Positions 7,886 through 50,155 of a stretch of DNA of 64,000 nucleotides are shown here, one piece after another. Positions within the stretch are counted from its first letter, which is position 1; each line of letters begins with the position of its first letter. Position numbers and translations under genes: made by a program. The DNA comes from a virus, in the IMG/VR virus record IMGVR_UViG_3300035086_000100, positions 1-64,000 of that record; one strand, written 5' to 3'. The notes under the pieces were generated by a model. That model searched no databases. It was not told where the DNA came from and saw only the letters and a list, made by a program, of their open reading frames with translations.

Positions 7886-8172
7886 GGATCTACGTCAGGG
7901 GACCGCACCTAGGACCCGTACGGACCACGCTCTGGTCATCGGGCAGCAGCAGCAACGGCGGGTGCCTGGCCCTGTTCCTCGCGTTCGGGCTGTCCCTGGG
8001 CATAGTCGCGCTCGGGGCGTTCCTGGTCAGTCACTGGCAGGTCACGCTGATAGCGGCCGGGGTGGTAGCGCTTCTGCTGGCCGGAAGGTACGGGAGGCGC
8101 AGGGAAAGGGCTCAGGCGGCAGCGAAGCCGGAGACACCGGAATCGCCGGCCGCGCAAAGCGACCGCAGGTAA
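7882..8172 (+). CDS. Small membrane protein (2 TM)
   Basis: ATGA overlap; two hydrophobic stretches. Confidence 0.6.
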   Translation: MRIYVRGPHLGPVRTTLWSSGSSSNGGCLALFLAFGLSLGIVALGAFLVSHWQVTLIAAGVVALLLAGRYGRRRERAQAAAKPETPESPAAQSDRR

Positions 8173-10971: not shown

Positions 10972-11343
10972 CTAGGGCGTCGGCACCAACTGGTAGAGGG
11001 TCACCGAGTTGCCGGTGACAACGGAGAAGTCGATCCACATCAGGCCGGTGCCGTCCGGCTGGGTGAAGTCGGCGGCCGACCACGGGCCGAACAGGTAGTT
11101 CGTGGAGTTCGCGAGCGTCTTGGTGAGCGTCGCCACCGGGTACGCCTGGCCCTGGACCTGCCGGCCTATCCAGGTGCTCATGGTGCACGTCCCGGCCACC
11201 CCGATGTAGACGACGAGGAACACCTGGCCATTGTTGGTGAAGTTCACCCCGGTAAAGGTGGCCAGCGTCTGCGCGCCCGTCGTCGGGAGCGTCAGGCCTG
11301 CCGTGCCTGCCAGGTTGACTGGCGTCAGGGTCACCCGTGCCAT
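10972..11343 (-). CDS. Putative virion structural protein
   Basis: Thr/Gly-rich, 123 aa, in the neck-tail cluster. Confidence 0.65.
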   Translation of the reverse strand: MARVTLTPVNLAGTAGLTLPTTGAQTLATFTGVNFTNNGQVFLVVYIGVAGTCTMSTWIGRQVQGQAYPVATLTKTLANSTNYLFGPWSAADFTQPDGTGLMWIDFSVVTGNSVTLYQLVPTP

Positions 11344-15401: not shown

Positions 15402-16313
15402 TTAGATACCCGACAAAAGTACGAAAGCTAGGGGTTCGTCAAGCCCTATGGCGGATTGGCGCTGAATATCCGATCTGCTGGACTTGGTCTTTTCGTCTCG
15501 ATACAGGGGACTTGCCTGAAATTCCAGCTCATCCGCGACAAACCCGCATCTCTGCCGCATAAGCACCAAGGCGTTGCCCGAAGGGATCTGCCTTGACCGC
15601 AAGGTGTCGAGATCGAGGATTTTATTAGGAAGTACCCCCGTGTACTGGAGGTTTTCTGACGCTATGTCCCCGATGTACGGCGCCGCGAAGGAACTGCTCT
15701 GAATGAGGGTATTCTTCGTTCCTGTCCCGATAATCATCGTGTCGGCCTCGAAGCCCAGGTACGACGTGAAGCCGAGGCTGCTGGGCACGCTGGCGTTCTC
15801 GACCAGGAACACCGCATTGGCGATGTCTGCCCGGATCGTCGCGTTGGACGATGCCCACGGCGCGCCCACCGCGAGGGTCTGGATGCCCCCGTTGGCGACC
15901 ACGGCGCTGTAGAAAGCCTGCTCCCACGAGTACGTCATCGTGTTCTTCACCTGGCGGAGCTGCCTGGTCAGCGGGTCCATGATCATGCGGCGGCGCATCT
16001 GGTCGGAGACGCTGACCGCCATCGCGCGCTCGTGGGTGAACACCACGCGCGGAATCCCGACGCTGGTCGGCACGACCGGCACCTCGCCGAACTCGGCCCG
16101 GATCTCGGGCACGTCATCGGCGTACAGCGGCGTCGACTCCGAGTAGCGCACGGCGCCGCTGTTCGTCATCCCGCCCTTCCGCAGGATCACGTCCATGATG
16201 AACTCGTTCTGGGTCATTTCCAGGATGAGTTCGGGGATGATCAGCGGGTCCTTCAGCAGCGCGTCATAGGTGATGCGCGGGCCGTCCATGCTGGTGATCG
16301 AAGAAACTGGCAC
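15402..16313 (-). CDS. Major capsid protein
   Basis: 303 aa; LLKDPLIIP..EFGEVPV..AIGLDEPLAFVLLSGI; follows protease and decoration genes. Confidence 0.88.
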   Translation of the reverse strand: MPVSSITSMDGPRITYDALLKDPLIIPELILEMTQNEFIMDVILRKGGMTNSGAVRYSESTPLYADDVPEIRAEFGEVPVVPTSVGIPRVVFTHERAMAVSVSDQMRRRMIMDPLTRQLRQVKNTMTYSWEQAFYSAVVANGGIQTLAVGAPWASSNATIRADIANAVFLVENASVPSSLGFTSYLGFEADTMIIGTGTKNTLIQSSSFAAPYIGDIASENLQYTGVLPNKILDLDTLRSRQIPSGNALVLMRQRCGFVADELEFQASPLYRDEKTKSSRSDIQRQSAIGLDEPLAFVLLSGI

Positions 16314-26886: not shown

Positions 26887-28407
26887 CTACCCCTTGGTTC
26901 CGAAGTTCGGCACGCTGAACGGCTGCGCCATGTCCTCGGGAAGCGGGGCCGCGTTCGACTCCTTCAGCGCCTTCTGCGCGATCTTGTGCGCCGCATCGAC
27001 CCCGCCCGCCAGCGAGCCGAGCTGGGCGGCTGCCTGCGGCGGCATTCCCGGTGCCGCTGCCGGGGCCTGTGCCGCCCGGTCCTTCGCCGCCTGCTGGATG
27101 ATCTGCTCCACCGCGGAAACGTCGAGGTTCAGGAACGTGGCCAATCTAGTGGTGATGATGTCCAGGATCCCTGCGGGCACCTGAAGTGCGGGGGCTACGG
27201 ACATTGCCTGGAACAGGCCCACGAGTGCGGTGTCGCTCTCGTCGGTGAGCGCGCCGAATTTGAACGTGGGATAGGCGGCGTCGGGGCCGAAATTCAATGT
27301 CACCAGAGGAGCGAGTACGTCGTGCGTGATGGCGGCTTCCATCTCGGCGGTGACGGCCTGGCGGGACTTGAGGAAGAACGCGGACTGGTCCTGGGACAGG
27401 GCGAGGGAGCCGCGGCCGAGGCTAGCCAGGGACGCTAGGCCCGTGAAGCCCGCGAGGACTGAGGAGACCTGCCATGTTTCGAGGAAGGACAGGGCCTCGC
27501 TGAACTGCCCGGCACCCTTGCCCGCCGACTCCAAGATCTCGAACTGCTTAGCACCCTGGGGCGGGCGCTCGAATCCGACCACGCCCGATGCGCGCATGGA
27601 CGCGATGTCGTCCGCGTGCGCGTTGGCCTCTCTCGCCGACTGGCCGTAGACCAGGACTTTCGGTAGGCTCTGCTGTTCAATGTACTGATACCAGAGGAAA
27701 ATGAGCTTTAGCTTGGTTTGGTAGCACCAGTAACAAATGTCCAGTTCCGATGTGCCGGTGAGCGGCTGGCGGTGCTTCCCGTTGACGTAGACAAACGAGC
27801 GGATAGCGGGAATATCGACGTAACCGGGCGTAGATCCCTGCGCCCGCGTCCGGGATTCGCCGCCGACGAGCCACTGCCGCTGCCTGAACCCGTCGAACGC
27901 GCCGGTCCGGGCGTCCCGCCTGAGTTCGCAGGTCGACACCGGCCGCCACGCCAGTTTCTCGTAAATGATCTTGCCGTCCGAGTCGCGCTGAGCGAAAACC
28001 TTCTCGTGGAAGCTCTGGCGGTACGTCTGCGCGCTCGTGACCTGGCCGATCACGTCCTGCAGCGGCGTCTTCATCCCGCCGGCGGTGTGCGGCTCCATCA
28101 GCACGGAGCGGCAGAATTCAGCCTCGCCCTTGTCGCCCTTGGTCTTCTCGATCGCGCGGCTTGCCTGGCGGATCGGCAGGGTCAGGACGGCTTCGAGGGC
28201 AGCGGCCTGGCCGTCGCGGGTGAGCATGACCCCGACATCTCGGGCATCCCACGTGCCGTAGTCGAATACCTCGCCTTTGCCGTAAAAGGCATACATACGG
28301 TCAGAGCTATCGAAACTGGTTCCGAGTTCCCCGCGCATGAGCTGGCTGCGGGTAGACGGCTTCAGGTCCGGGAACGCGACGATCTTCGCGTTCTGGGAAC
28401 CGGCCAC
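26887..28407 (-). CDS. Portal protein (Mu gp29/DUF935-like)
   Basis: 506 aa after terminase; LAPLVTLNFG..YPTFKF. Confidence 0.85.
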   Translation of the reverse strand: MAGSQNAKIVAFPDLKPSTRSQLMRGELGTSFDSSDRMYAFYGKGEVFDYGTWDARDVGVMLTRDGQAAALEAVLTLPIRQASRAIEKTKGDKGEAEFCRSVLMEPHTAGGMKTPLQDVIGQVTSAQTYRQSFHEKVFAQRDSDGKIIYEKLAWRPVSTCELRRDARTGAFDGFRQRQWLVGGESRTRAQGSTPGYVDIPAIRSFVYVNGKHRQPLTGTSELDICYWCYQTKLKLIFLWYQYIEQQSLPKVLVYGQSAREANAHADDIASMRASGVVGFERPPQGAKQFEILESAGKGAGQFSEALSFLETWQVSSVLAGFTGLASLASLGRGSLALSQDQSAFFLKSRQAVTAEMEAAITHDVLAPLVTLNFGPDAAYPTFKFGALTDESDTALVGLFQAMSVAPALQVPAGILDIITTRLATFLNLDVSAVEQIIQQAAKDRAAQAPAAAPGMPPQAAAQLGSLAGGVDAAHKIAQKALKESNAAPLPEDMAQPFSVPNFGTKG

Positions 28408-30422: not shown

Positions 30423-33257
30423 CTAGCGCCACGAGTGCACGTTCGGCCTTGACGGCCTTCCGTCGTCATCCTGGGGAGCGAACGAGTCCACGCCCCACCC
30501 GTTGTCCCGCTGGCCGTAATCGGTTCCCTGCTGCTGCTGAGTTGCCCGCCTGTGACGCGGGTCGGAGGGGCGGGACAGTTCGTCCAGCTCGGCCTGCAGG
30601 GCGTAGCGGCGGGCACCGGCAGCACGGGGGGTGCCGGAGAGGTCGAAGTCGTGATCGAGGAACGGCGTTATCGCCCAGACCAGGCTATCGAGCCTGTCCG
30701 GCGATCTTTCGCCCGCAGCGCCAGTAAACGTGACGCATTGATCCTCTAGTTCCACGTGCGGGCCGTTGACGTGCCGCACGATGTCCCGCTCGTACAGTGC
30801 CGCTACCGGCTCGGCGCGGGTCCGCTTCGCCTGCGATGCGTGCACCACCTGATACGGAACCGACACGCCCAGGTCGCGCATGACCTGCCGCAACGTCGCT
30901 TCAAGGTAGGCGCCGCCGTGGTTCTTCTCCAGGATGACCCGGCCGTCCCAGCGTTCGGCCACCCGGACGACGCGCTTCAGGAACGGGACCGCGCCGATCC
31001 GGCCGCCCCACGACTCAGGGACGTACAGCCGCCGGTCCCCGCCGATCCCCGCGACGGTGTAGGCGCACTCGTCGGAATCCTCGGTGCCGTCAGAGGGGTC
31101 AGCGCCCACCGTGACCTGATGAAGCCGCCCGTCAGCGCCGCCGGGGACCTCCGGGACCTGGATCGACTCCAGCAGATCCCTTGACCAGAGAGCGTTCTCG
31201 ACGTCGTCGAGTAGTTCGCCCTCAAGCTCCTGGCGTTCCAGCCGCGTGCCCGTGGCTCTCGCCACGACTGATCGGTAGAACGTCTCCGACAGGTTCGCGA
31301 GGTTGTCGGCCGTCCTGAGCCTGCGGACCACCACGCCCGGTTCGTCGCGCAGCAAGCGCCGGATCAGCTTCGCCGCAGGCCGGGAGATCTTCGGGGTTCC
31401 GTCCGCGATGATCCGCGAGATTCCCTTGCGGACCGCGTAGGCGATCGACTCATCCCACGCCGTCGCCCACTTCAGCCACAGGCCGATCTCACTGCACCAG
31501 CACGCTGTCAGGTTCTTGCCCTGCACCCGCAGCGCGCCGTCGTTCGCCGAGTCGACGTAGATGACGTGACCAGACCGCAAGCCGATCTCGCCATAGGACC
31601 GGTGAGCGTAGGCCACGGTCCGGCTCGTGCCGTTCTTGACCTCGCCCGCACTGGTCCCCAGCGCTGCGAGAAACCCGCTCTCACCCTCGACGCAGACTGT
31701 CCATGCGTCCCGGTAGGTCGGGGCCACGATTGCCCAGTCGGCGGGTTCCGGCGTGTCCTGGATGAGCTGGGCGAGGCCCTGAGCGGAACTCCGGGTGTTG
31801 TGAGTCGGAACCATCGACTCGCCAGCGAGGTACATGTGATGCGGAGAGTCGACCGTCAGGCAGCGCATGGCCACGGGGTCGATCCGCTCAGCGCTAACGA
31901 TCATGCGGTGGTAGTGGCGGAACGCCTGCGCAGTGGGCATCTTGCAGCGGGCAAGTTTGCGGGACAGCCTGAATACGGGAATCGTCGGCCGCCAGGTGAC
32001 GCGCCACTTCGGCCCGCAGTCGCGCCCGTACAGCGTTGCCCGCCCCTCGGCGCAGACGGGCTTCTGGCCCAGCGACCGCGCCAGTTCGACCACGGCGTCA
32101 GCAAGGGGCTTGCAGGTGCTGGTGAACTCGACAGCGCAGCGTCGGGCGTCGGCACTGCCGTCTGTGTCCATCAGACCTTGCAGCAGCGCCAGCCGCTGAC
32201 TAGCGGACGCCCGGAGATACTCGGACGGAACGTGTTTGCTGCCGATCACGCCCAACTTGCGCAGCCGTCCGGTAAGGCCGGCGGGGTCGCGGGCATACGC
32301 CTGGCCGCCGATGAGGTAGCCCGGACACCGGTCGCCGTTCGGGCGCAACGGCTTGACGGTCTCGCCGCAAGCGCGGATGTGATCCAGGATCTCGGGGTCG
32401 GCCGAGGTGAGCGTGGCGTTGACCGATGATCCGTCGCCGAGCCAGCAGCCCAGGACGTAGGGATGCACGGGAAGGCCGGCTTCGGGCAGGTCAAGCGCAC
32501 CGCACACCGGAACCGAGTGGTTCGTGTCGCCTCGCGCGCCGAACGTGAGCGTGTCGGCAATCTGCTGCGTGGTGCGGATGCGCGGGCCGGGTGAGTCCGG
32601 GAACACTAGCGGCTCGGTCTTGCGCTCGACATAGGCGCCTGCGGTCAGGTGCCTGATCAGGCCGGTCCGGGATAGCCCGGTCTGCCGTATGACCTGATCG
32701 ACCGTTGCACCGCCTGCGCGGAGCGCCAGTGCGGGCTCTACCTGCTGGCGGGTCAGGTAGTTGTTGCCGCCGGGCAGTGGCCGCCGCCTTCGCCACGCCG
32801 GCCAGTCGTCGGGCAGGCGGGATGAGTCGTCATAGGGGGAGCGGAGAAACTCCTTGCGCTCGGCATGCGTCCACGTCACCCACTGGTGATCCGAGCACGC
32901 GTCAATGAACGTGCCGTCCGAGAACCGCAGCCGGTAGGCCACCTTCGGGATGTCATCGAACGTCGCCGTGACCCGGCAGATCCGCCCTGCTTCGTCGAAG
33001 ACTTCGTCGCCTGCGTTGATCTCGCCTAGTTTCGCCCAGCCGCGAGGCGTGGGAATGGGGGTAGCCACATCAAGTAGCTTACCGGCCCCTCTGCCGCCCT
33101 GATAATAAACGACGCGCCAGTCGCCCTCGGGCAGGAGCTGATCGGGCCGGGCGGTTCTCAGCCACTCCTTCTGAGGGTCCGCATGCACTCGCTTCCAGGC
33201 CCGCAGTTCAGCGAGTAGCCGCAGCTTCTCCGGAGGCGCCTGATGGATCACTGGCAC
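30423..33257 (-). CDS. terL: Terminase large subunit with intein
   Basis: Walker A GRGAGK|T, IVAPT, DGTPK, nuclease GADPS..ILEKNHGG..PDRLDSLVWA. Confidence 0.95.
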   Translation of the reverse strand: MPVIHQAPPEKLRLLAELRAWKRVHADPQKEWLRTARPDQLLPEGDWRVVYYQGGRGAGKLLDVATPIPTPRGWAKLGEINAGDEVFDEAGRICRVTATFDDIPKVAYRLRFSDGTFIDACSDHQWVTWTHAERKEFLRSPYDDSSRLPDDWPAWRRRRPLPGGNNYLTRQQVEPALALRAGGATVDQVIRQTGLSRTGLIRHLTAGAYVERKTEPLVFPDSPGPRIRTTQQIADTLTFGARGDTNHSVPVCGALDLPEAGLPVHPYVLGCWLGDGSSVNATLTSADPEILDHIRACGETVKPLRPNGDRCPGYLIGGQAYARDPAGLTGRLRKLGVIGSKHVPSEYLRASASQRLALLQGLMDTDGSADARRCAVEFTSTCKPLADAVVELARSLGQKPVCAEGRATLYGRDCGPKWRVTWRPTIPVFRLSRKLARCKMPTAQAFRHYHRMIVSAERIDPVAMRCLTVDSPHHMYLAGESMVPTHNTRSSAQGLAQLIQDTPEPADWAIVAPTYRDAWTVCVEGESGFLAALGTSAGEVKNGTSRTVAYAHRSYGEIGLRSGHVIYVDSANDGALRVQGKNLTACWCSEIGLWLKWATAWDESIAYAVRKGISRIIADGTPKISRPAAKLIRRLLRDEPGVVVRRLRTADNLANLSETFYRSVVARATGTRLERQELEGELLDDVENALWSRDLLESIQVPEVPGGADGRLHQVTVGADPSDGTEDSDECAYTVAGIGGDRRLYVPESWGGRIGAVPFLKRVVRVAERWDGRVILEKNHGGAYLEATLRQVMRDLGVSVPYQVVHASQAKRTRAEPVAALYERDIVRHVNGPHVELEDQCVTFTGAAGERSPDRLDSLVWAITPFLDHDFDLSGTPRAAGARRYALQAELDELSRPSDPRHRRATQQQQGTDYGQRDNGWGVDSFAPQDDDGRPSRPNVHSWR
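31797..33077 (-). mobile_element. Class 3 intein with LAGLIDADG endonuclease (427 aa) in the Walker A motif
   Basis: Starts LLDVATPIPTP; HQW, MRCLTVD, PTHN|T; GCWLGDG and GLMDTDG motifs. Confidence 0.9.
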
Positions 33258-33768: not shown

Positions 33769-34557
33769 TCAGTGAACAGGCATCGCGGACGACCGGATGC
33801 CGACCGTCCAGAGGAGATCGCCGGATTGGAGGTACGGCAGGCATTTCGCCTCGTAGAGCGGGTCCAGGGCAAGGCCGCCGAGGACGTTAGGTGCGCGGTC
33901 GGCGTAGGCGTACGGGCTCGCGGCGAGGCGCACCATGTCGCGCCAGCCGGGGGCGTGGCGGTCAAGGCACGGGGCCGGGTCTCCGCCGACGCGGACGCCG
34001 AGCACAGGAACGGCACGGGGCAGGCCGCCGAGAATCCCGGCGAGGGTCATGCCGCTGCCCACGGGCACCACGAGCCGTTCGCAGGCGGGGAGGCTCGCGG
34101 CCTGTTCCGCTACCTGGCGCAGGTAGGCGGGGTGGTCCATGCCGTAGCCAATCGACGCCCAGCCGGGCAGGGCTGCGGTGTCGGCGCGGAACCGGGCCTT
34201 GATGACGCTGAGCCGAGCCGGGTTGTGGCGCAGGACGATCGCGCCGGCCGCCGCCGCGCACGCGGTCTCGCAGGTTTCCCCGCCCGACCCGGTGTGCAGC
34301 CGCGCGGGGATGCCGAGGGCGCGTGCCGCCAGGGCCGCGCGCTCTAGCTGGGGGCTGATCCGCGACCCGGCGGTGATGATCCCGGCGCGGCCTGCGGCGG
34401 CCTCGATTACCGCGCGGGCCTTCGCGCCCGACGCGCCGCCTAGTGACCAGGCGTCCTCGCGCTTGACGAGGATGCCGTCGTGCTCCTCAACCGGCGTAAT
34501 CTCGGGCGTGAAGTCGGGGACGGCTATGGCGCGCACCAGGAGCAGCGCGCCGGTCAC
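33769..34557 (-). CDS. PLP-dependent enzyme (ACC deaminase/D-cysteine desulfhydrase-like)
   Basis: VKRED..GAKAR, VPVGSGMTLAG, LDPLYEAK. Confidence 0.8.
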   Translation of the reverse strand: MTGALLLVRAIAVPDFTPEITPVEEHDGILVKREDAWSLGGASGAKARAVIEAAAGRAGIITAGSRISPQLERAALAARALGIPARLHTGSGGETCETACAAAAGAIVLRHNPARLSVIKARFRADTAALPGWASIGYGMDHPAYLRQVAEQAASLPACERLVVPVGSGMTLAGILGGLPRAVPVLGVRVGGDPAPCLDRHAPGWRDMVRLAASPYAYADRAPNVLGGLALDPLYEAKCLPYLQSGDLLWTVGIRSSAMPVH

Positions 34558-35966
34558 GCCGTCTGGCTGTCGTCGCCCCATGCTTCCGTTACCTCATCCG
34601 GCAAGTACAGGTCCACCTTGCCGCATGCCTTGGCGGCGCGCTGACGGCTTCCCTTGCAGAAGACCGACACGTCCTGATGCGTCCGCCCGAGCGTTCGTGC
34701 GCCCTCGAACATACGGGGGGCGCGTATCGGGAGGCTGCCGACCGACGTCACGAGTACCGCGCCCGATGCGAACATGAGCCCGGCCGATGCTGCGGCGCGC
34801 ACCGTCATGGCCCGGAAGTCGACGAGGCGGCCGGTCTTATCGTCCCGCACGTCGCCAGTCACGATCACGGCGAAGCGGTCCGGGCGGAGGGCGGCAGCAA
34901 CGCCCTTCAGTATGTGCGTGTAGGTGTCCTCAAATGCAGCCTCGCCCATGCCCGACAGGTCGGCCGGATCGTCGCTGTACCGCTCCAGCCAGAGGTAGGG
35001 CGGGCAGGCGAGTATGAAGTCCGCACTATCCGGCATCAGATCGCTAACCCACTCGGCGGAATCGCCTATGGCCCACGTGACCGCCTCGCGGTTGATGAGC
35101 CTGCGGGCGGCGAAGTCGTCGGCCTGCTCCATGTTGGCCTTGACCTGATCGGCTGACAAGTCGTTGCCGATGTACCGACGCCCGGTCATTGCGGCCATGA
35201 GGCCACGCACGGAGCCGCCGGCGAACGGATCAATCACGGTACCCTCGCGCGGGCAGAACCAGCGGTAGGCGAGTTCGCATAGCACTGGATCGAAGATGCT
35301 TACCGTGCCGCCTTCGGTCGCATCTGTCTTCAGGCGGCTCGGCCCTCGATCGGCCGCCGCGCTGAAGTCAATCAGGCTCCCGTCGCGGCCGACCTCAGAC
35401 TTCAGCCCGAGATCAGCCCATGCCCTCTTGCGGTCTCGCCACCAGCCTTGCCGGGAGTCGAGTACGTCGAAGGGCGGGATCAGGAAACGGTCGGCCAGGG
35501 ACGGGCGATCCTCCGGGCCGTCACCATGACCCGAGCCCTCGCCGCCGCCGGATTCGTCCCGGCCCAGCAGATCGGCAATGTCATCCAGATCATGGACCGA
35601 GTAGCCGGTGCCGTCTAGATCGCCGTCTAGCGCGGCAAGCAGTTCCGCGAGGGCCTGGGTGTCATCCTCTGCCAAGTCCGCTAGGCGGTTGTCCGCTAGA
35701 TTCACTCTTCGCGCTTCGTCATCGGTGCAGGTGATGACCTCGCACCGCACCGTCTCGTGACCTTCGGCCTGAAGCGCGTCAGCGGTGTGATTCCCGGCCA
35801 GGATCACCAGGCCCGAGCCGGTGTCGCGGACGACGATGGCGCGGTACTGGCCGAGGCGGCGCACCGAGGAGCGGATCTCGCCGACGTTGCCGCGCCGGGC
35901 GTTGCCGGGGAACCGCGCCAGGTCCGCTACGGCTATGTCGCGTGTCCCCGCTGGAGTGACGGCCAC
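34554..35966 (-). CDS. ParB-like domain fused to a DNA amino-methyltransferase
   Basis: PGNARRG..ILAGNHT..LADNR; IDPFAGGSVRG; ACPPY. Confidence 0.85.
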   Translation of the reverse strand: MAVTPAGTRDIAVADLARFPGNARRGNVGEIRSSVRRLGQYRAIVVRDTGSGLVILAGNHTADALQAEGHETVRCEVITCTDDEARRVNLADNRLADLAEDDTQALAELLAALDGDLDGTGYSVHDLDDIADLLGRDESGGGEGSGHGDGPEDRPSLADRFLIPPFDVLDSRQGWWRDRKRAWADLGLKSEVGRDGSLIDFSAAADRGPSRLKTDATEGGTVSIFDPVLCELAYRWFCPREGTVIDPFAGGSVRGLMAAMTGRRYIGNDLSADQVKANMEQADDFAARRLINREAVTWAIGDSAEWVSDLMPDSADFILACPPYLWLERYSDDPADLSGMGEAAFEDTYTHILKGVAAALRPDRFAVIVTGDVRDDKTGRLVDFRAMTVRAAASAGLMFASGAVLVTSVGSLPIRAPRMFEGARTLGRTHQDVSVFCKGSRQRAAKACGKVDLYLPDEVTEAWGDDSQTA

Positions 35967-40652: not shown

Positions 40653-42779
40653 TCAGTTCTCTGCGTTGACGAGCGACCGGTACCGGCCACCGCCGAGGTC
40701 TTCGGCCACGCCGACCGCTACCAGGTTGCGGAGCGCCTGATCAGCGGAGAACGCGTCCGTGTCGGCCATCTGCGACACGTCATACAGATCCATCACGCCC
40801 CTGCTGGCCAGCCATGCGGCCAGCAGAGGGACGGTGACGGGCTTCGACTCCGGCGGCTGCGGCAGGTCACCCGAGTCGTGTCGACGGGGCGCGGGCGCAT
40901 CCTGGGCGGGCGGCGACCAGCGCGGCCCGGCACCCGGTCCGCTGACGACACGGCGAAGCTCGGCGGTCACCGCGAACGGCAACTGGGAGTCCTTGACGCC
41001 ATCCGGCAGCGCGGCTATCGCCTCGATCAACTGCGAGCCGTCCAGCACCGACAGCCGGCCGCCCCACCCGAGCGGCCTGATGACCGCCTCGATCTCGGGG
41101 CCGAGTTCCACCACGTCGAGGGAGATCTTCTCGGCCAGTTCCCGCACGTCCGGGCCGTCCTCGCCCGGCTTGACGTACTCGGGCAGGTGCTTGGTCCGCA
41201 TCGTCGTAGACGGCCGGTTGTCCGTGCCGTGCAGAAAGCCAAGCCCGTGCACGCCGGGGGCCAGCGCCGACGTGTCGCCCTGCACGCCCAGCATGTGCTT
41301 GCTTAGCCCGTCCGTGCGGTGAGACAGGACATTGAACGCCTTCAGCAATTCGCGGATCGCCCGCAGGCCCAGTTCGGTGAGGTCCGGCATCTGGACGACC
41401 ACCTTGACTTTCACGCCGACCTTGCGGCCCTCCATGATGATCGCGGCGACCAGCGGAATCGCGATCTTCGACAGCACCGGGTCGCGGACGATCTTCGGCC
41501 ACTCGTCGATCGTCACGTCGATGATCGGGTTCTCCGGGGTCGGGTCGAACGAGCCCTTGCCGGTGTTGACCCTGCCCAGGTGGTCGGTCCAGGTCTGGTC
41601 GCCGAACCGGGCGGCGCGGTCGCACATGAGAGCGTGCGCCATGATGATCATCTGCACGCACGCCTCAAGGCCCCATGCCATCTGGTCGGCGAAGCCCTTC
41701 CAGACCGCGAGGGGCTGGCGCTGCGGGTCACCCATCCACAGGGCAATGATCCGCTTGCCGTCGACCTTCGCCTGGCCTTCCTCGCAGGCGATGACCAGCA
41801 GGGAGCCCGTCTTGCCGGATCCCTGCTGGCCGGCCAGGATCCCGGCGGCGACTCCCGACCCGGGTATGTGCAGCAGCCAGTGAGCGTCCTCGCCGTCCGC
41901 GTACCGCCCGATCCTGACCTTCCCTGTCGCCGGGTCATACGTCGACTTGCCGTCCCACTTGTCAGCCCGGTTCCACGCGTTCTTGCGGGTCAGAACCGTC
42001 ACGATCGCCCGCCGCTCCGACCGGTCCGCCGTGTACTCCACGGTGACCTGGTCCCTGCTCACGTCGAACTGGGCGGCGACCTTCGGGATCAGCGCGAACA
42101 AGTCGCCTGTCGTGGTTTCCGACCCGGCGGGCAGCTCGATTTCCAGCGCGAACCCGTCTTTCACGTCCCGCAGAGAATGGAACCGGGCGCCCTTGCACGG
42201 GCCTGACTGCCCGAACCTGGCACTGAACGCCGTCAGCCTCGGGTCAGGAGGAGGGGGAGCAGCCGGCGCGGGCGCGGGCGGCTCAGGCGGGGGCTCGGGC
42301 CGCTTGCGCGCCCGGTACAGGCCGGGAGCGGCGACGGCCAGGCCGCCGCCGAGCATCACGAGCTGGCCCCAGCCGTTCAGGACACCCGCAGCGGTCCCTG
42401 CCGCCATGGCGGTGCAGCACGCCGCGCACGACGCCCAGGCGGCCTGCCTGCGCGCCCGTGCCCGGCCCAGCCTGCGCGCCGACGCGCCGTCAGCGGCGAG
42501 CCGGGCGGAGATCCTCGCGTGTCGCACCGCCACCCTGACCGCAGCGACCGTGCACGGGGCAGCGACCAGGGCGTAACCCCACGGCCAGCCGATCGCGTGG
42601 CCGCCGGCAACGAGGCCGTCCGCGCCGGCTACCGCGGACAGCGAGGCCAGCGCCCGGTGCTGGCGCAGGTAGGCGGCCGGGGCGCTGCCCGGCGGGGTGA
42701 ACTCGGGCGGGTCCGGGTCCGGGCACGGCTTCGACACGGCGCTCTTGCCGCCGGCGGGCTTCTTCGCGGTCGGTGCCAT
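40653..42779 (-). CDS. FtsK/SpoIIIE-family conjugal DNA translocase (TraB-like)
   Basis: N-terminal TMs, IGRYADG, Walker A GQQGSGKT, Walker B VTIDEW, EGRKVGV..Q, C-terminal wHTH-like segment. Confidence 0.85.
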   Translation of the reverse strand: MAPTAKKPAGGKSAVSKPCPDPDPPEFTPPGSAPAAYLRQHRALASLSAVAGADGLVAGGHAIGWPWGYALVAAPCTVAAVRVAVRHARISARLAADGASARRLGRARARRQAAWASCAACCTAMAAGTAAGVLNGWGQLVMLGGGLAVAAPGLYRARKRPEPPPEPPAPAPAAPPPPDPRLTAFSARFGQSGPCKGARFHSLRDVKDGFALEIELPAGSETTTGDLFALIPKVAAQFDVSRDQVTVEYTADRSERRAIVTVLTRKNAWNRADKWDGKSTYDPATGKVRIGRYADGEDAHWLLHIPGSGVAAGILAGQQGSGKTGSLLVIACEEGQAKVDGKRIIALWMGDPQRQPLAVWKGFADQMAWGLEACVQMIIMAHALMCDRAARFGDQTWTDHLGRVNTGKGSFDPTPENPIIDVTIDEWPKIVRDPVLSKIAIPLVAAIIMEGRKVGVKVKVVVQMPDLTELGLRAIRELLKAFNVLSHRTDGLSKHMLGVQGDTSALAPGVHGLGFLHGTDNRPSTTMRTKHLPEYVKPGEDGPDVRELAEKISLDVVELGPEIEAVIRPLGWGGRLSVLDGSQLIEAIAALPDGVKDSQLPFAVTAELRRVVSGPGAGPRWSPPAQDAPAPRRHDSGDLPQPPESKPVTVPLLAAWLASRGVMDLYDVSQMADTDAFSADQALRNLVAVGVAEDLGGGRYRSLVNAEN

Positions 42780-42874
42780 GGTTCCGGGTCTCCTGCCGTC
42801 CTCTTGCGGTTCGGGCCTGATGGCTTCCGCGTCCCCCGCCCGGCTTCGATCCTGCCGGGCGGGGGACGCGCACG

Positions 42875-43198
42875 TCACCGGCCAGTGCGGGCCTCGTCGG
42901 CGTACTGCTTGTGCGGGGTGTTCTCCGGCCCTCCGGCCGCGGCGACAGCCTCGCCGACCGGGACCTGGGTGTCGTTGACGGTGTCGGTCATCCGGATCCC
43001 GGACGCGACAAGGTCGGTGATCTCGGCCTGGAACACGCGGATCGCGGCGGCCTGCGACAGGTCGCCGTTGTCGGCCTCCACCTGGGCGGCCATCGTGTCG
43101 AGCAGGTCACGCAACTGCTGAAGCCGGGTAATGCAGGCGCCGGCCCAGGCAAGCCAGGCGGCATGAGTGTTCGTCTCGCCGATCAGCGGGGCAGTCAT
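42875..43198 (-). CDS. 107-aa helical transfer-associated protein
   Basis: RBS GAGGGAG; similar to the C-terminus of the upstream gene. Confidence 0.65.
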   Translation of the reverse strand: MTAPLIGETNTHAAWLAWAGACITRLQQLRDLLDTMAAQVEADNGDLSQAAAIRVFQAEITDLVASGIRMTDTVNDTQVPVGEAVAAAGGPENTPHKQYADEARTGR

Positions 43199-43223: not shown

Positions 43224-44654
43224 CTACATCTCGGCGTAGTAATCCGGGTCGGCCACCTCGTCGGAGCCGCCGGCGCCCTGGACCGCGTCCACGTACGGGT
43301 CCTGGTGCTGGTTGACTTCCTCGACCAGGTTCCGGCCGTGGGACATCACGGCGGTGACCTGGTCAAGCCAGGCGGTCACCGCCGCCATGTGCTCCCGGCC
43401 GGCGCTCTTCGCGCTCAGGCACTTCAGCGTGTTCTCCGCCGACTGGGCGATGCCTTCGAGCGCGGCGTCGATCGCGCTGGTCAGCCCTTCCCAGTCGGCC
43501 TGGGTGTGCAGTTCACCGTCAGGCGCGCACGTCATCGGGTCTCCTTGCGGTTGCGGCGGTGCAGCCTGACCGGGCTGCGTCGGCCCTGCCGGGGCATCCG
43601 GCGGGGAATTCTGGGCGGCAGCCTCCTGCGCGATCCGGCCGGCTTCGGCGGCCAGGAACTCGGCGTCGCCAGCGGTCAGCGGCATCTCGTTGCCGTCCGC
43701 GTCCACGGGGGTTCCCGCGGCGGCCAGTTCGGCTGGCTGGCGTTCCCTGACTGCCCCGTCCGGGTAGCGGGCCGGGATGCGGGTGATGACGCCGTCCTTG
43801 CTGCTCGTGCCGCCGTACCCGCAGTACAGGCAGATGTCGGCGTTGGTGGCATTCACCACGTACCAGGTGCTTCTGGGCATGAGCTGGCGGTTGCAGCCCG
43901 GCTCGGAGCAGATCCTGACCGGCAGTTTCCATCGGGCCGGGTCTGCGCCCTCGCGGCTGACTGGCAGGCCCTGGTAGTCCGGGCACAGCAGGCAGCCCGG
44001 ATTCACGCACGCGAAGCCGGCCAGCGGCTTGCCGCAGCGGACGCAGCGCGGCGCCGGGACTGCCCCGGGTTCCGGGTCGCCCACGATCTCCGCGTCGGGA
44101 ATCTCGTCGTCGGGGGGCAAGTCGCCGTCCCGCATGGCGGGCGGGGCTTCCTCCGCATGCTCTGCGACGGCCGGACGGCTGGCACCCGGACGGCATGAGC
44201 CGCACAGCCCGTCTTTCAGGGCCGTGACAGCGGCGATGCCGCCGCACTGGCCGCACACCCCGATCCGCAGCAGCCGGGGGCGCTCGCCGTCCCGCAGGCG
44301 CTTCCTGGCCTCGCCGTAGGCGTACTTCCCGCCCCGCCATGCCGCTCCGGCGATCCGGCGCACGATCCCGGCGCCGTTGCGGAACAGCCTGCGGCGGCGC
44401 ATCGCCGCGCGAACGGCCCTGGCGGTCCTCATCGCCGCCCACGCCCAGAACGCCGGGTAGAAGGCGCCGCGCTTGCGGTCCTCTTCAAGCCGTTTCGCGA
44501 GCGCCGCGCCCGCCTTGGTTCCCTTGTCCTTCAGGGCCTGGAGTACCGCCGCGCGGACCGTGCGGCCCTCGGCCACGGCCTGCCAGATCCCGGCCTTGCC
44601 GGCGGCGTGCACGACCAGCCACGCCACCAGCATCGGCATGAGGACGACCATCAT
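43224..44654 (-). CDS. Transfer-associated protein (N-terminal TM, Zn fingers, C-terminal helical domain)
   Basis: Hydrophobic start, several CxxC pairs; internal RBS and ATG at 43535. Confidence 0.6.
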   Translation of the reverse strand: MMVVLMPMLVAWLVVHAAGKAGIWQAVAEGRTVRAAVLQALKDKGTKAGAALAKRLEEDRKRGAFYPAFWAWAAMRTARAVRAAMRRRRLFRNGAGIVRRIAGAAWRGGKYAYGEARKRLRDGERPRLLRIGVCGQCGGIAAVTALKDGLCGSCRPGASRPAVAEHAEEAPPAMRDGDLPPDDEIPDAEIVGDPEPGAVPAPRCVRCGKPLAGFACVNPGCLLCPDYQGLPVSREGADPARWKLPVRICSEPGCNRQLMPRSTWYVVNATNADICLYCGYGGTSSKDGVITRIPARYPDGAVRERQPAELAAAGTPVDADGNEMPLTAGDAEFLAAEAGRIAQEAAAQNSPPDAPAGPTQPGQAAPPQPQGDPMTCAPDGELHTQADWEGLTSAIDAALEGIAQSAENTLKCLSAKSAGREHMAAVTAWLDQVTAVMSHGRNLVEEVNQHQDPYVDAVQGAGGSDEVADPDYYAEM

Positions 44655-44667
44655 CTGAAAGGCTCCC

Positions 44668-45105
44668 TTACTGGCCGGTGATACGGGACACGACCGCACC
44701 GGCAATGTGGTCGAAGAAGCCGAGCACCCCGGCGGCCTTGTGCCCGAGCGTCAGCAGCAGCAGCGCCGGGAGGAGCAGCCCGAACGTGGGCTGCAGGATC
44801 CGGTTCGGGGTTCCGCCGAACTTCTTCACGCCGTCGTGGATGAACTCGACGGTGATCAGGCCGGTGATGCCGATCTCGATCCAGTGCGCCACGCCGGTCA
44901 GGCCCGCGATGTAGCCGCCGAGCAGGCCGGCCAGGGGGATGCCCACGGCGAAGGCGAGCCAGCCGATGATCCGCGCCGACTTCTTCTTGCGGTGCATTCC
45001 GAGGGCGATGCCGCCGAGCAGGGCGGCCCCTCCGATTGACAGGCCGGCGATCTGGCCGCCGGTCAGGCCGGCCGGGGTGACCCCGGCGGCCAGGATGATG
45101 TTCAT
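44668..45105 (-). CDS. Spd-like membrane protein (about 4 TM)
   Basis: Hydrophobic segments; context upstream of the TraB-like gene. Confidence 0.6.
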   Translation of the reverse strand: MNIILAAGVTPAGLTGGQIAGLSIGGAALLGGIALGMHRKKKSARIIGWLAFAVGIPLAGLLGGYIAGLTGVAHWIEIGITGLITVEFIHDGVKKFGGTPNRILQPTFGLLLPALLLLTLGHKAAGVLGFFDHIAGAVVSRITGQ

Positions 45106-45132: not shown

Positions 45133-45702
45133 TTACCTGAGGTGGAAGGCCAGCCAGGCAATGCCGATGAAGGCCGCCGCCCCGCCGAGCCGGATCGGGC
45201 GGGCGAACAGCCACGCCAGCAGGTAGCCGGCGGTCACGCCGAGCCGTCCGACCGTCAGGTGGTAGCAGTTGCCGGCCGGGCCGGAGTACTTGCCGTGATG
45301 GGTGCACGCCCGGGCTGCGTTTCGGCACGGCTCGCAGCACGGCACCCAGGCCCGGGATTTGCGGTAGGCGTCATGGACGGCCAGTGACTCGGGCGAGGCG
45401 TGCCACGGGCCGCGCGGGTTGGTGACGGTCTTCCGCGCCGTCTGCCAGCACATGGCCGCCAGGTGCAGGGCGACCGTGCCGCCGCCGATCTTCAGGACCA
45501 CGCCGTCAGGCACGTCAGCGTCAGGCAGCGCCAGTGCGGCGCCAGGGTCACCGTCAGGCGCACCGTCAGGCGGAGTGTCATGCCAGCCGTCAGGCGGAGC
45601 GTCATGCCGGCGGTGGTGCCCTGGCCCGCCGCAGGACCCGTCAGCCTCGCCCGGGTCACGAAGGTCGAACTCGAAGTCAAGGTCGGGCAGCGAACTGGTC
45701 AT
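45133..45702 (-). CDS. Spd-like membrane protein with PPDG repeats
   Basis: C-terminal TMs; ATGA overlap. Confidence 0.55.
   Translation of the reverse strand: MTSSLPDLDFEFDLRDPGEADGSCGGPGHHRRHDAPPDGWHDTPPDGAPDGDPGAALALPDADVPDGVVLKIGGGTVALHLAAMCWQTARKTVTNPRGPWHASPESLAVHDAYRKSRAWVPCCEPCRNAARACTHHGKYSGPAGNCYHLTVGRLGVTAGYLLAWLFARPIRLGGAAAFIGIAWLAFHLR
45504..45646 (+). repeat. Cluster of CGTCAGGC 8-mers
   Basis: Exact copies at 45504, 45519, 45552, 45564, 45588, plus variants. Confidence 0.85.
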
Positions 45703-46005
45703 GACACCCTCGCGAGTTTCTCGGCAAGCTGGGCTAGCTGGTCGGTGAGCTGGCGGACAAGGCCCGGTCCCCGGCGGGGGATCTTCATCGCGTCGGCGGC
45801 CACGGCGCGAGCCAGCGCGGTCGCCTCCGCCAGCGCCTTCATCTCCTCGCCGGCGGACTGCGCGGCGGTCATGCGCTCCCTGTACCGGGCGCGCGCGGCA
45901 GCGGTAGTCACCGGGTACCGCCTCGCGCGCGCGGGCACGCGCAGGTGCATGCCTGCATGTGCATCCCCGCGTTGGGGGTTCCGGCAGGGCTCAGTTCCGG
46001 GCTGG

Positions 46006-46899
46006 TCACCTGTCCGCTCCTTCCGTCTCGCGTGCCGTCTCATCCAGTTCGGGCAGCCACTTGGACCGCATCTGCCGGCCCAGGCTGCTGGACGCCGAGA
46101 GCCCGGCCGCGCGGACCAGGTCGGCACCGGACGGCGCGGGCCTGCCCGCCTGGATCTCGGTGTCCCAGTAGGTGCGCATCACCTGGGCGGCGCCGTTGTT
46201 GCTCCCGGGCGGACCCGGGGGGATGCACTGCCCGGCGGTGATCGCCAGCTCCCGCGCGTGGCCGCCGGCGACCGGCAGGCGGCTGACGGGGCTGACGGAC
46301 TGGCTGGCGGCCCTGACGATTTCCGCCTGACGCTCCGCGATGGCGGCGCGACGCCCGGCCGCCTGACGCTGACGCTCTTCTTCCGCCTGACGGTCTTCTT
46401 CCGCCTGACGGTCGGCGGCCTGACGCTGACGCTCAAGCTCCGCCTGACGCTCGGCCTCCGCCGCTATCGCCTGACGCTCGGCCAGGCCCTTGCGGGCCGC
46501 CTCGGCTGCCCGCCGCTCCATGAGGGAGATCGCCAGCATGAGGAACAAGCCGGGGATCGCGGCCGTGATGTACCCCCACGCCGACGACTGCGCCCCGGCG
46601 AGGTTCCCGGCCAGGGTCAGGCCGATCCCGAAGATCATCACGATGGTGGGCCACGACATCCAGCCGCGGCGCTTGCGCCCGGTCCTGATGTCGCGCTGCC
46701 GCTCGCGGGCAGCCATCAGCACCCCGAGGTCCACGCACACGGCGATCAGCGGCGCCAGGACGCCGGGCTGGCCGTGGCCCGATGCCAGCCGCGTCCAGTG
46801 GTCGAACGAGCCGCCGAACGCGATCAGCGCGAGGGCGAGCGGGATGCCGTTGTCGGCGACCGCCCGCCCGAAGCCGTTCCCGTCCCCGGCGGCGCTCAC
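46006..46899 (-). CDS. DUF2637 (SpdA-like) membrane protein with C-terminal HTH-like segment
   Basis: AFGGSFDHW..LA..G..LIAVCVD..LTLAGN..AIP. Confidence 0.75.
   Translation of the reverse strand: MSAAGDGNGFGRAVADNGIPLALALIAFGGSFDHWTRLASGHGQPGVLAPLIAVCVDLGVLMAARERQRDIRTGRKRRGWMSWPTIVMIFGIGLTLAGNLAGAQSSAWGYITAAIPGLFLMLAISLMERRAAEAARKGLAERQAIAAEAERQAELERQRQAADRQAEEDRQAEEERQRQAAGRRAAIAERQAEIVRAASQSVSPVSRLPVAGGHARELAITAGQCIPPGPPGSNNGAAQVMRTYWDTEIQAGRPAPSGADLVRAAGLSASSSLGRQMRSKWLPELDETARETEGADR
46281..46476 (+). repeat. Cluster of GCCTGACG 8-mers (reverse complement of the 45.5 kb cluster)
   Basis: Exact copies at 46325, 46361, 46385, 46403, 46418, 46442, 46469, plus five CTGACG-core variants. 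Confidence 0.85.
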
Positions 46900-48868
46900 G
46901 ACGGCACCGCCCCGGGTGACCGGTCGCCTATGCGCCAGTTCTCGTCCCATGCCTTATCCATCGCGGACGGGTCGTACGTCGTCCCGGCCGCGATCGAGTG
47001 CATCGCCGCAGAGGGCGCACGGCGCTGGTAGTACTCGTCGTCAAAGTCGTGGAAGTGCGACCCGTGAATGATCCGGCCGTCGTCGGCGACGCCCAGCAGG
47101 TCATATTCGGCCTGCGGACCGCCGCACGCATCGCAGGCGGGCTCAAGTTCGGCGAGGCTGTCAGCCTCGGCAACTGCGGCAGCGAGCGCAGCCCGGCACT
47201 GGCGGCACAACGTCCCGGCACTGGCGGGCTCGCCGCACCAGCAGCAGTAGCGCCAGCGGTTCCGGATACGGGCGATGACGCTGAAGTCGCTGCGCCAGCG
47301 GCACTTCGGGCAGGCCAGCAGATCCAGGGGGTCAGGGTCGCCCGGCTCGGCGATCAGCGAGGCGCCGCACAGCGCGCGGGGGACCTTGATCCGCAGCCGG
47401 TCGAGCAGGCCCTGCCAGAAGCCGGCGACGTGGAGGAACGCGCTGTCCGGCGACTGCGCGAGCGGCTCGGTGGCTTCTACCTGCCAGCCCTGGTCGCAGA
47501 TCCAGAAACGTGCATCATCCGGATCCGGGTAGGCATCGCCGAGCGGGGACAGTGTGGCCATGCGCCAGGACGCCTGCACCCCGGACGGGGGCACGTGACG
47601 GGGGTCGGCGGCGATGATCCGCATCGTGCCGTCGCCCAGGATGCCCCAGATCACCGCGCCGGGCTCCATGTCCCGGGTGAGCATGTAGTAGCTGGTCATG
47701 ACGCCTCCCGGTTTTCGTCGCGCTTGGCGACCGCAGTGCCGGAGCAGGCGGGGCAGGCGGACAGGGTCAGTCCCCGCACGCCGGTCCACTCGCAGTCACC
47801 GCAGTTCCAGCGGGCAAGCGGCCTGCGCTTGGCGTTGCCGTAGGTCCGGGCGATCATGACGCCTCCCGGCTGTCGCGCTGAGCGAGATGCGCGTCCCATG
47901 CGCGGTCCGTCTCGCGCATCCACTCAGCGGCCGAACCGTTCCTCGCGTGCCAGCCCTCCCAGTACTGGGAGCCGCCGTCCGCGTGGTCGGCGTGGCGCTG
48001 CTCCTCGTCGGCCAGGGCCTGCTCTATCTCGGCCTCGGTCGGCTCACGGGCGCTCATCGGGAGCCTCCGTGGTCAGGGCAGTTGCCGTGCCAGTCGCACG
48101 ACTCGTGGTCGGTCTTGACCTCGCCGAACGAGCCGGTCGTGCCTGCCCCTCCGTCGCGTGAGCCAAGCCGGTGGTTACCCTCCGACCAGCGCTCGCCTTC
48201 GCTGCTTTCCAGCCAGGCGATGACCTCGGGGTCGTTCATGACGCCACCCGCCCGTCATAGGCGGTCTCGCAGGCGGCTGCGTAAGCGGCGGCTGCGGCGC
48301 CGATGCCGTTCGGGCACTGGTCGTCGGTCGTGACGACCCTGACTTCGCCTAGGTAGCGCTCCACCAGTGCGAAGCGTGCGGCAGGCCGGTCAAGGCGCAT
48401 CGCCTCGGTAGCCGGCTCGACCGTCAGGACCGGGACGGCGGGGAAGGCCCGGATGTTCACCGGACTAGCGACAGGATGCACTGCGAGCCGCTGGCGACCC
48501 GGTCCCGGTCCGCCAGCATCCTGCGTCCCATGATCCGGATGTCCCGCCGGAACGCCGCGATCATCGCGTCCTGCTCGGAGATCACGGCCAGCAGTTGCGT
48601 CCTTGTCATCTTGGTGACGGGGACGGGGGGTACTATCTCCACTTGAGTCAGTCCTTACTAGGGGATGCGGACTCGGATCAGCAGGGTCACCGTTTGCGGC
48701 GGTGGCCCTGCTTGCGTTCAGGGGGAAGTTCGCGGTCCCGCAGGAGTGGCCGTCAGCGGACCAGTAGACGGTCCCGCAGTTGCCGCAGACCGAAGTCATG
48801 CTCAAGCCGGCCGACCGGGGGGCGCAGGAGCGGCAGAGCGGCGGGATGGCTATCGGGGAGAAGTTCAT
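46896..48868 (-). other. Chain of small translationally coupled hypothetical genes (46896-47699, 47696-47857, 47854-48057, 48054-48239, 48457-48642 and others)
   Basis: Repeated GGAGGCGTCATGA-type RBS/start/stop overlaps. Confidence 0.55.
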
Positions 48869-49132: not shown

Positions 49133-49173
49133 CTACCTAGGCCAATAGTAGGTAGTGCTAGCCAAGTCGTCAA
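49133..49173 (-). promoter_or_regulatory. Promoter of the transfer operon with overlapping inverted repeat
   Basis: TTGACG-17 bp-TACTAT on the minus strand; CTACCTA-N9-TAGGTAG at 49133-49155. Confidence 0.7.
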
Positions 49174-49267
49174 GGCTTGTTCATCAGTGAAAACCGGTGA
49201 ACTCGGGCGTAGCGGGTGGGGTTATGCCGCAGGAACGGAATCGGCCTAGGCAGATACCATGATTCGC

Positions 49268-50155
49268 ATGCAACCGATAGACCCCGACGACAAGCGGCAT
49301 CCGCACGTCCAGATCGCGGCCTCGATCCGCGCGGCGATCCTCACGGGAGAACTTGAGCCAGGCTCGCAACTTGACACCGGACAGGAACTGGCGGCCTTCT
49401 TCGGCGTGTCCCGCATGACCGTGGCTTCGGCGATCCGCACGCTCCGCGACGAGGGCTTCGTCCGCTCCCGCATGGGCAGCGGCGTGTTCGTCCGCGACCT
49501 GGCCAGCCTCCCCGCACCCGAAGGCGAGGAGCATCCGCTGGCCGGGACCGCGATGTTCCTGTTCGAGATAGGCCAGCTCAAGCACCAGCCCCGGTCGGGC
49601 TGGCTGCTGCTGGGCATCCCGCACCCGGAGAGCGTCGCCGAGCACTCATTCCGGGTCGGCGTCATCGGCCTGATCCTCGCGGCGATGGACGGTGCCGACG
49701 TCGGGCGCACTGCCGCCCTGGGCCTGATGCACGACGCGCACGAAACCCGGATCGGCGACGTTCCCTCAGTCGGCCGCGCCTACGTCACCACGGCGGACCC
49801 CGAAGCCATCACGGCCCACCAGGTCGCGAAGATGCCCGACGAGGCATCGAAGGCCGTGCAGGAACTCACCGCCGAGTACGAGGCGAACGTGACCCGCGAG
49901 GCGCGGCTGGCCCACGACGCGGACAAGATCGAGACGCTGCTGCAGGCCACCGAGTACCAGGCGCAGGGACATGACACCGAGACGTGGCGGGAGAACTCGG
50001 TAGCGGCACTGCGCACCGAACCAGGCCAGCGGCTGGCCCAGGCCATAGGCGCAGGCGACTCGCGGTGGTGGGCGCCATTCAATGCGTCCTACCTCGAATT
50101 GCATGCCAGTGCGCGCAACCGCACTCAGGCAAGCCGGCCCGACGAGGAGGGATGA
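49268..50155 (+). CDS. GntR-family HTH fused to an HD-domain hydrolase (YfbR-like)
   Basis: QIAASIRAAI..LAAFFGVSRMTV..GSGVFV; RSGW..ESVAEHS..HD..E..GD..HDADK. Confidence 0.88.
   Translation: MQPIDPDDKRHPHVQIAASIRAAILTGELEPGSQLDTGQELAAFFGVSRMTVASAIRTLRDEGFVRSRMGSGVFVRDLASLPAPEGEEHPLAGTAMFLFEIGQLKHQPRSGWLLLGIPHPESVAEHSFRVGVIGLILAAMDGADVGRTAALGLMHDAHETRIGDVPSVGRAYVTTADPEAITAHQVAKMPDEASKAVQELTAEYEANVTREARLAHDADKIETLLQATEYQAQGHDTETWRENSVAALRTEPGQRLAQAIGAGDSRWWAPFNASYLELHASARNRTQASRPDEEG

Follow-up and report, generated by a model that had tools for sequence, protein, structure and literature searches.

Two opposed arrays of a short DNA word within adjacent genes upstream of a traB-like gene in a tailed-phage contig, a candidate cis element of DNA transfer

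The virus record IMGVR_UViG_3300035086_000100 of IMG/VR, that of an actinomycete phage, carries, upstream of a gene for a TraB-like double-stranded DNA (dsDNA) translocase, two adjacent genes, here called D and P, in which one 8-bp word is clustered in opposite orientations. The locus raises the question whether this repetition serves the DNA or the encoded peptides and, if the DNA, which protein reads it. All coordinates refer to the window, the whole stretch of 64,000 nucleotides that was analysed (positions 1 to 64,000 of the record), unless another locus is named; loci of relatives carry L numbers. A first-pass annotation had proposed a clt locus (cis-acting locus of transfer) bound by the winged helix of TraB. 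Most probably the arrays serve the DNA-transfer machinery as sites at which a protein docks, with the product of gene D as the favoured reader.

Two arrays of one word in linker codons

Both host genes are located on the minus strand, which refines the first-pass annotation. Gene D (46006..46950) encodes a DUF2637 membrane protein of 314 amino acids (Pfam DUF2637, E 7.6e-7; phrog_733), for which an AlphaFold model was used. Gene P (45133..45702) encodes a conserved protein of unknown family (189 amino acids) with acidic repeats in its N-terminal part, a hydrophobic helix in its C-terminal part and the conserved core NPRGP..PESL..AYR.SRAW; no match to it was found in Pfam, NCBIfam or PHROG.

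Array 1 (46284..46476, minus strand) is placed in the coiled-coil linker of D and contains 12 CGTCA cores on the coding strand, 7 of them as CGTCAGGC. It is read in the frame CGT-CAG-GCn, which gives Arg-Gln-Ala (RQA). Array 2 (45504..45643, minus strand) is placed in the N-terminal low-complexity part of P and contains 9 of the 10 TGACG cores of that gene's coding strand, 5 of them as GCCTGACG. Here the frame is NNT-GAC-Gnn, x-Asp-Gly/Ala, which in P takes the form CCG-CCT-GAC-GGn (PPDG). Array 2 is the reverse complement of array 1, and the two face each other in opposite orientation across about 0.7 kb, wholly within coding sequence and upstream of traB at a distance of 2.6-3.8 kb. What is conserved is the core TGACG, extended in this element to GCCTGACG. 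The exact copies stand where they had been annotated, with CGTCAGGC on the plus strand at 45504, 45519, 45552, 45564 and 45588 (span 45504-45595) and on the minus strand, where it is GCCTGACG in plus-strand reading, at 46325, 46361, 46385, 46403, 46418, 46442 and 46469 (span 46325-46476).

Local clustering is stronger for the pair CGTCAGGC/GCCTGACG than for any other 8-mer in the window. Over both strands CGTCAGGC occurs 23 times, compared with 6.0 +/- 2.3 in dinucleotide shuffles, none of which (0/100) reached 23. Two codon-aware null models held the protein sequences fixed. When codons were redrawn from the codon usage of the element, 0.37 copies were expected in D (7 observed) and 0.17 in P (5 observed), and none of the 20000 resamples reached the observed number. 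When synonymous codons were permuted within each gene, P was 5e-5 for D and likewise for gene P. Enrichment over a codon-shuffled background, suggested earlier as a check, was therefore borne out, as was the rarity of the codons involved: CGT accounts for 4.4% of Arg codons and CCT for 6.2% of Pro codons in the element. Within D, 10 of the 11 Arg codons of residues 159-207 are CGT, compared with 0 of 26 elsewhere in the gene, and in P 12 of 14 Asp residues follow a codon with T at its third position.

Conservation and replacement of the word among relatives

Scans with single proteins returned no close relatives, and a profile search was needed. Relatives were collected with a TraB profile from genomes, IMG/VR and metagenomes, and profiles of D later added L029, L030 and L065. 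The gene order D, small open reading frame (ORF), P, three genes and TraB is kept in L001, L006, L007, L008 and L013, with TraB identities of 48-56%, and in L014 (47%). More distantly, the same order is found in L003, L005, L019 and L002. The flanks of most relatives share no phage genes with the window, and the D-P-TraB module is accordingly a cassette.

An unbiased k-mer scan of each locus placed the top clusters in the same two places. Seven loci (the window, L001, L006, L007, L008, L013 and L029) have one arrangement in common: CGTCA clusters in D on the coding strand, and the N-terminal part of P has its cluster on the opposite strand. The exact 8-mer is not universal among relatives; only the core TGACG with G/C-rich flanks is. 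The exact 12-bp phase is kept in the P arrays, as in nine sites at 6756-6852 of L001. In the P repeat of six loci (TraB identity 48-56%) the residue before Asp may be P, A, G, T, H, V, I or R, and the codon for it ends in T in 49 of 61 cases, compared with 4-11% T at third positions in the rest of the genes. In the linker of D, the Arg before Gln is encoded by CGT in 27 of 47 cases, compared with 12 of about 125 other Arg codons. Synonymous sites are saturated at the divergence of these relatives.

Since TGACG is kept by means of rare T-ending codons while the amino acid varies, and since in distant relatives both arrays are made up of another word, the constraint acts on the DNA word and not on the peptide. 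The first-pass annotation had suspected as much, and had named conservation of the peptide without the 8-mer as the outcome that would speak against it. The reverse was found: homologues change the peptide (PPDG, ADG, GDG, TDA, VDA) and keep the core TGACG through the wobble T. Concerted evolution within an array cannot explain this pattern, because the T is kept while the first two codon positions differ between copies.

In the distant relatives the word itself is replaced. L005 carries GAACCAG, with 8 copies in D and 7 in P; L014 carries GCCGGCCA/TGGCCGGC, L030 carries GGTAAC, and L019 and L003 carry CAGGTC, each in both arrays. The repeated 6-mers shared by every D linker with every P N-terminus form a block-diagonal matrix. 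TGACG loci share 9-43 of them in opposite orientation (5 for D of L006 against P of the window) and 0-14 in the same orientation, and for L014, L005 and L030 the sharing peaks on their own diagonal. The peptides are unrelated between word classes (RQAE, NQ, QVPD, VT). In L065, an IMG/VR contig, the linker of a D-like gene contains TGTGACC/GGTCACA in alternating triplets with 12-bp spacing at 7706-7969, and both orientations of the word read Val-Thr.

These data bear on a reading without any DNA function, in which two tandem peptide repeats grew by slippage and the words merely arose with them, complementary by chance. In each array Tandem Repeats Finder detects repetition with periods of 12, 18 and 24 bp, and slippage and conversion make the copies non-independent. 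Against it stand the wobble T, kept across seven loci at saturating divergence while the first two codon bases vary, and the sharing of a word by both genes, which is kept between word classes while the peptides are not. The triplets of L065 add a further point, as slippage cannot produce an orientation that alternates in this way. This explanation is already disfavoured and is given hardly any credence.

A function at the level of RNA was also considered, in which complementary arrays on one polycistronic mRNA pair over a long range and control the translation or stability of the genes between them. The opposite orientation is conserved, the arrays of the window are perfectly complementary over up to 13 nt (shared 13-mers), and both are located downstream of a single promoter-like site. 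The shared words of L005 and L014, however, are mostly in the same orientation or near-palindromic, no Rfam match was obtained, and exact 12-bp phasing with many interchangeable partners fits coating by a protein better than a defined RNA fold. We know of no precedent for such pairing, and consider this explanation very improbable.

Rare codons acting by translational pausing were rejected as a cause, because pausing leaves unexplained the fixed NNT-GAC-G register, the presence of the word on the opposite strand of the other gene, and its replacement in L005, L014 and L030.

Among cultured phages of INPHARED no homologue of D or TraB was found. TraB proteins of PLSDB plasmids are only about 29% identical, and arrays comparable to those of the window were not seen in two PLSDB loci, L023 and L024. 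The first of these, plasmid III of Nonomuraea gerenzanensis (59 kb, circular), encodes a distant TraB, a DUF2637 protein (L023, 4339-5220) and tail-like proteins (collagen-like, peptidoglycan-recognition). Instead of direct-repeat arrays it contains GGGACACC-N8-GGTGTCCC palindromes before and inside the DUF2637 gene.

Candidate readers of the word

In the AlphaFold model, D has four helices of transmembrane (TM) type, the last of which continues as a long helix (residues 124-218) carrying the RQA repeats, followed by a disordered linker and a C-terminal helix-turn-helix (HTH) of three helices. This predicted HTH (residues 251-313; 46012..46200, minus strand) contains SSLGRQ in its putative recognition helix and is the candidate preferred here for reading the arrays. 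All TGACG loci (7 of 7) have the same helix, SSLGRQ....W, and no locus with another word has it: the helix is YSLGKK in L014 and HPSLASRKRKEW in L065, where the HTH is homologous to that of D, and is different again in L005 and L030. The membrane domain of D is 50% identical to that of the window in L030 and 51% in L029; yet L030 has another HTH, another word and a pump of canonical FtsK type. In L029 the TGACG arrays of D and P are intact and the helix of D is kept, and TraB is only 34% identical. The TraB of L029 (11341-13206 in that locus) ends directly after the motor domain (…YTGEGQVLRDAA), with neither linker nor winged helix, and no winged helix is encoded just downstream, where the next ORF is unrelated. 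Since SSLGRQ tracks TGACG, and L029 keeps its arrays without a winged helix in TraB, D is favoured as the reader.

The reading preferred here, to which we assign a probability of roughly 0.4 on the basis of sequence comparison and structure models, is that the word is read by the C-terminal HTH of D and that the arrays are one bipartite cis element of a TraB/Spd-type transfer module. The two arrays, each of about ten phased copies of a short word and facing each other, would form a single cis-acting element written through unconstrained linker codons of two adjacent genes. Many coiled-coil, membrane-anchored copies of D, flexibly tethered to their HTH domains, could coat both arrays and hold the dsDNA of the element at the membrane beside the TraB pump and Spd-like proteins. 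The logic would be that of sps and SpdA2 in pIJ101, and what has been described for SpdA2 agrees with it. The locus would then be a cis site of transfer or spreading, clt-like in function, of which TraB is not the sequence reader. Through their conserved head-to-head orientation the arrays may fix the geometry of the complex, or else the direction of engagement by a pump. Both the protein that binds the word and the effect of its binding are what we infer from the loci compared.

Several points weigh against D as the reader. The link between HTH and word is a correlation over about a dozen related loci, with their shared ancestry as a confounder. Neither Pfam nor PDB gave a sequence match for the HTH of D, and Foldseek gave no fold match for it when run on the model of D. 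In the clade of L019, L003 and L002 the membrane protein lacks a fused HTH, and an HTH may be encoded by a separate ORF. Thirty chromosomal DUF2637 genes of the same order, with another HTH type, contain no arrays. The words are non-palindromic direct repeats, unlike the 12-bp palindromic sps sites of pIJ101, and known TraB and TraA proteins bind direct repeats of 7-9 bp, TGACACC included (PMC3583192). In the clade of the window no other strong or comparable repeat array was found in the module or near or after traB, so that if TraB needs a clt, only the D and P arrays qualify.

The last two points lead to the reading of the first-pass annotation, a true clt, in which the 8-mers are recognised by the winged helix of TraB, both arrays become sites of hexamer assembly, and the inverted orientation makes a bipolar or converging loading site. 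The TraB-like dsDNA translocase (40653..42878, minus strand) has the expected architecture of N-terminal TM helices, an FtsK-fold motor (residues 213-646), modelled with confidence, and a C-terminal winged helix, the last predicted in the AlphaFold model at residues 683-735 (40674-40832, minus strand). The top Foldseek matches of the motor are FtsK motor domains and FtsK-dsDNA structures (6t8g, E 7.7e-13). The match to NCBIfam plasmid_TraB is weak and far below the cut-off (E 1e-11; 44 bits, cut-off 800 bits), and PDB sequence profiles returned no match. Assignment of the arrays to a TraB/FtsK-type transfer module is upheld by the motor fold, the TM helices and the predicted winged helix. The C-terminus matches only TrmB winged HTH, weakly, with no Pfam FtsK_gamma match, and shares its layout of helices and wing with the C-terminus of pIJ101 Tra. 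Its wing motif RYR is specific to the TGACG clade, with RYA or NYA elsewhere. The clt loci of Streptomyces are likewise clustered 7-9-bp repeats bound by TraB or TraA, as is TGACACC of pWTY27 (PMC3583192, PMC4447253).

Opposed to this are the arrays of L029, which exist beside a TraB without a winged helix, and the third, putative recognition helix of the TraB domain, which varies freely within the TGACG clade, in a domain that is net acidic (-3 to -8). The winged helix of L014 is very similar although its word is different, and the arrays of the window are upstream of traB and not at its 3' end. L065 contains, besides its linker array, a distinct GTGGCAC array at 11075-11196 (6-7 copies, both orientations), directly after the gene of its FtsK_gamma-bearing translocase; because this is the classical position of a clt, linker arrays and clt can be different things. 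A true clt is thus the strongest of the alternatives but an unlikely one. Of the original proposal, the constraint on the DNA and the association with a transfer module stand, while the winged helix of TraB as reader is not established and is partly contradicted by L029, by the variable recognition helix and by the tracking of the word by SSLGRQ of D.

Two side observations concern traB and its homologues. Four copies of the 10-bp palindrome CCGGTACCGG are present in the 99-kb contig, at 30036, 39798, 39907 and 40677 of the window. Three of these copies are within 900 bp at or after the 3' end of traB, one in the last traB codons and two in ydjM; they could be operators or a clt in the classical position, and were not seen in relatives. 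An FtsK_gamma domain is present in some TraB homologues (L001, P0016, P0020 and P0021); in L001 (12101-12352, E 2e-20) it follows the family's own acidic winged helix.

The arrays might instead serve another protein or function, as a centromere of partition type (iterons such as parC or tubC) or as sites of a regulator that silences the transfer operon. Two blocks of direct repeats with 12-bp phase resemble type II/III centromeres, and the element encodes a ParB-methyltransferase and GntR-type regulators. The arrays, however, travel with D, P and TraB in relatives with flanks that have no partition or phage genes in common with the window; no ParR, TubR or ParM gene is adjacent, and GntR operators are normally single palindromes in promoters. 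This explanation is regarded as improbable.

A KOPS-like (FtsK-orienting polar sequence) polarity over the whole contig was examined and is not claimed here. Outside the arrays, CGTCAG occurs 38 times on the plus and 10 times on the minus strand to the left of the locus, and 22 and 41 times to the right. The switch coincides with the point near 49 kb at which gene orientation diverges, the skew follows the coding strand on both sides, and CTG-ACG is favoured on coding strands, so that gene orientation explains it. The bipolar loading site of the first-pass annotation is possible, but the contig-wide polarity of the word goes back to gene orientation.

If D is the reader, the locus may represent a new type of transfer locus, in which a membrane-anchored DUF2637-HTH adaptor, and not TraB, reads an element-specific word concealed in its own and the adjacent gene and hands the dsDNA genome of a tailed phage or phage-plasmid to TraB. 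This wider proposal is doubtful, slightly more so than a true clt. Were it correct, a phage genome could spread from hypha to hypha by conjugation-like transfer, with no particles made.

Genomic setting and comparison with known systems

The minus-strand run comprises, in order, a gene of unknown function (46896-47789), D, an ORF of 57 amino acids, P, the genes 44668-45105, 43224-44705 and 42875-43198, TraB and YdjM. The helical 57-residue ORF between D and P (45699..45872, minus strand) overlaps the start of P with its stop (ATGA), and has weak tblastn matches in the same position in L003 and L008. No terminator was found between D and P. A sigma-70-like promoter match (49145..49173, minus strand) is the sole one upstream of the run and is divergent from a GntR-type gene (49259-50155, plus strand); the run is placed between that gene and the packaging genes. 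The stretch between D and P (45875-46005) contains a CGCGCGC run and the near-palindrome GCAGGTGCATGCCTGCATGTGCATCC, a possible operator between the arrays, and its equivalent in L005 contains GCATGCGC repeats at 6296-6324. A stretch of 250 bp near 51820, inside a gene on the right-hand side of the GntR region, holds four copies of CAAGGTGCC in the manner of iterons; the rest of the window has none. An inversion switch between the arrays was rejected, as order and orientation are identical in 8 of 8 loci with both genes and an adjacent invertase is lacking.

The contig of the virus record is 99 kb long and carries tailed-phage genes and the TraB module on the same strand. The genes for a tape-measure-like protein (2252-6055), major head protein (15402-16313), portal (26887-28407), large terminase (30423-33257) and ParB-methyltransferase (34554-35966) were identified. 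With tape measure, major head protein, portal and terminase on the contig, the conjugation-type module sits in a phage genome, and the locus is relevant to the question whether some actinophages travel as DNA by way of a pump of conjugation type.

A cis site and its reader have been identified in only a minority of actinomycete TraB systems. For these, and for the way in which circular dsDNA reaches the pump, the present locus offers a clean, testable case, with a selection signature at a single wobble base (T), two candidate readers encoded within 5 kb, and natural variants with exchanged word, HTH and type of pump. The locus further indicates that cis sites can hide in linker codons, beyond the reach of gene callers and of motif searches in intergenic regions.

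Known systems resemble the locus in part. Like KOPS of FtsK and SRS (SpoIIIE recognition sequences), it combines an 8-bp word with a dsDNA pump of the FtsK family. KOPS are dispersed and skewed over whole replichores, whereas the word here is concentrated in two arrays; orientation matters for KOPS and SRS, and the two arrays here face each other. The C-terminus of TraB is not an FtsK gamma domain by Pfam. Iteron centromeres, such as parC of R1 and tubC of pBtoxis, consist of two blocks of phased direct repeats of about 11-12 bp, on which a small DNA-binding protein assembles cooperatively as a coat. The locus has such blocks too, but here the arrays are inside genes and mutually inverted, and no ParM/TubZ-type motor or ParR/TubR gene is adjacent.

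In pSVH1 the clt is located at or just after the 3' end of traB. The same position is described for pWTY27 (PMC3583192). The clt loci of Streptomyces conjugative plasmids consist of 8-bp TRS (TraB recognition sequences) in pSVH1, 9-bp repeats in pJV1 and TGACACC in pWTY27 (PMC4447253, PMC3583192). Alike are the clustering of a short word (5-9 bp) on an element with an FtsK-like TraB bearing a C-terminal winged helix, the change of the word from element to element, and the TGAC core common to these arrays and pWTY27 DC1. Unlike them, the present locus has two opposite arrays, 0.7-1.5 kb apart, inside the coding sequence of two other genes, upstream of traB, with about ten copies per array and 12-bp phasing, and its comparative data do not point to the winged helix of TraB as reader.

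In pIJ101 the gene spdA2 contains the sps palindromes, which encode SRDD/E and to which SpdA2 binds (PMC4170104). Interaction partners of SpdA are TraB and essential Spd proteins, and it has been proposed as the interface between the DNA substrate and the translocation apparatus (PMC4447253). In both systems a DNA motif inside a spread-type gene imposes a peptide motif and is conserved as DNA, and as SpdA2 binds a motif in its own gene, so array 1 occupies linker codons of the very gene that encodes the predicted HTH of D. The sps site differs in being a 12-bp palindrome in 1-3 copies, compared with 10-12 non-palindromic copies and a second, inverted array in the neighbouring gene, and its phenotype is plasmid stability and not transfer. 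D is a DUF2637 protein without detectable similarity to SpdA, and no SpdA-type family was matched by it in Pfam, NCBIfam or PHROGs.

Clusters of repeats bound by TraB or TraA as clt (PMC3583192, PMC4447253) and a binding site inside a spread gene (PMC4170104) are already known. New are the two inverted, phased arrays that occupy linker codons of neighbouring genes upstream of traB and, as judged from the loci compared, the keeping of this layout while the word is replaced, in a family of modules encountered mainly in metagenomic and viral contigs of Streptosporangiales type. New as well is the comparative evidence that a DUF2637-HTH protein may be the reader rather than TraB.

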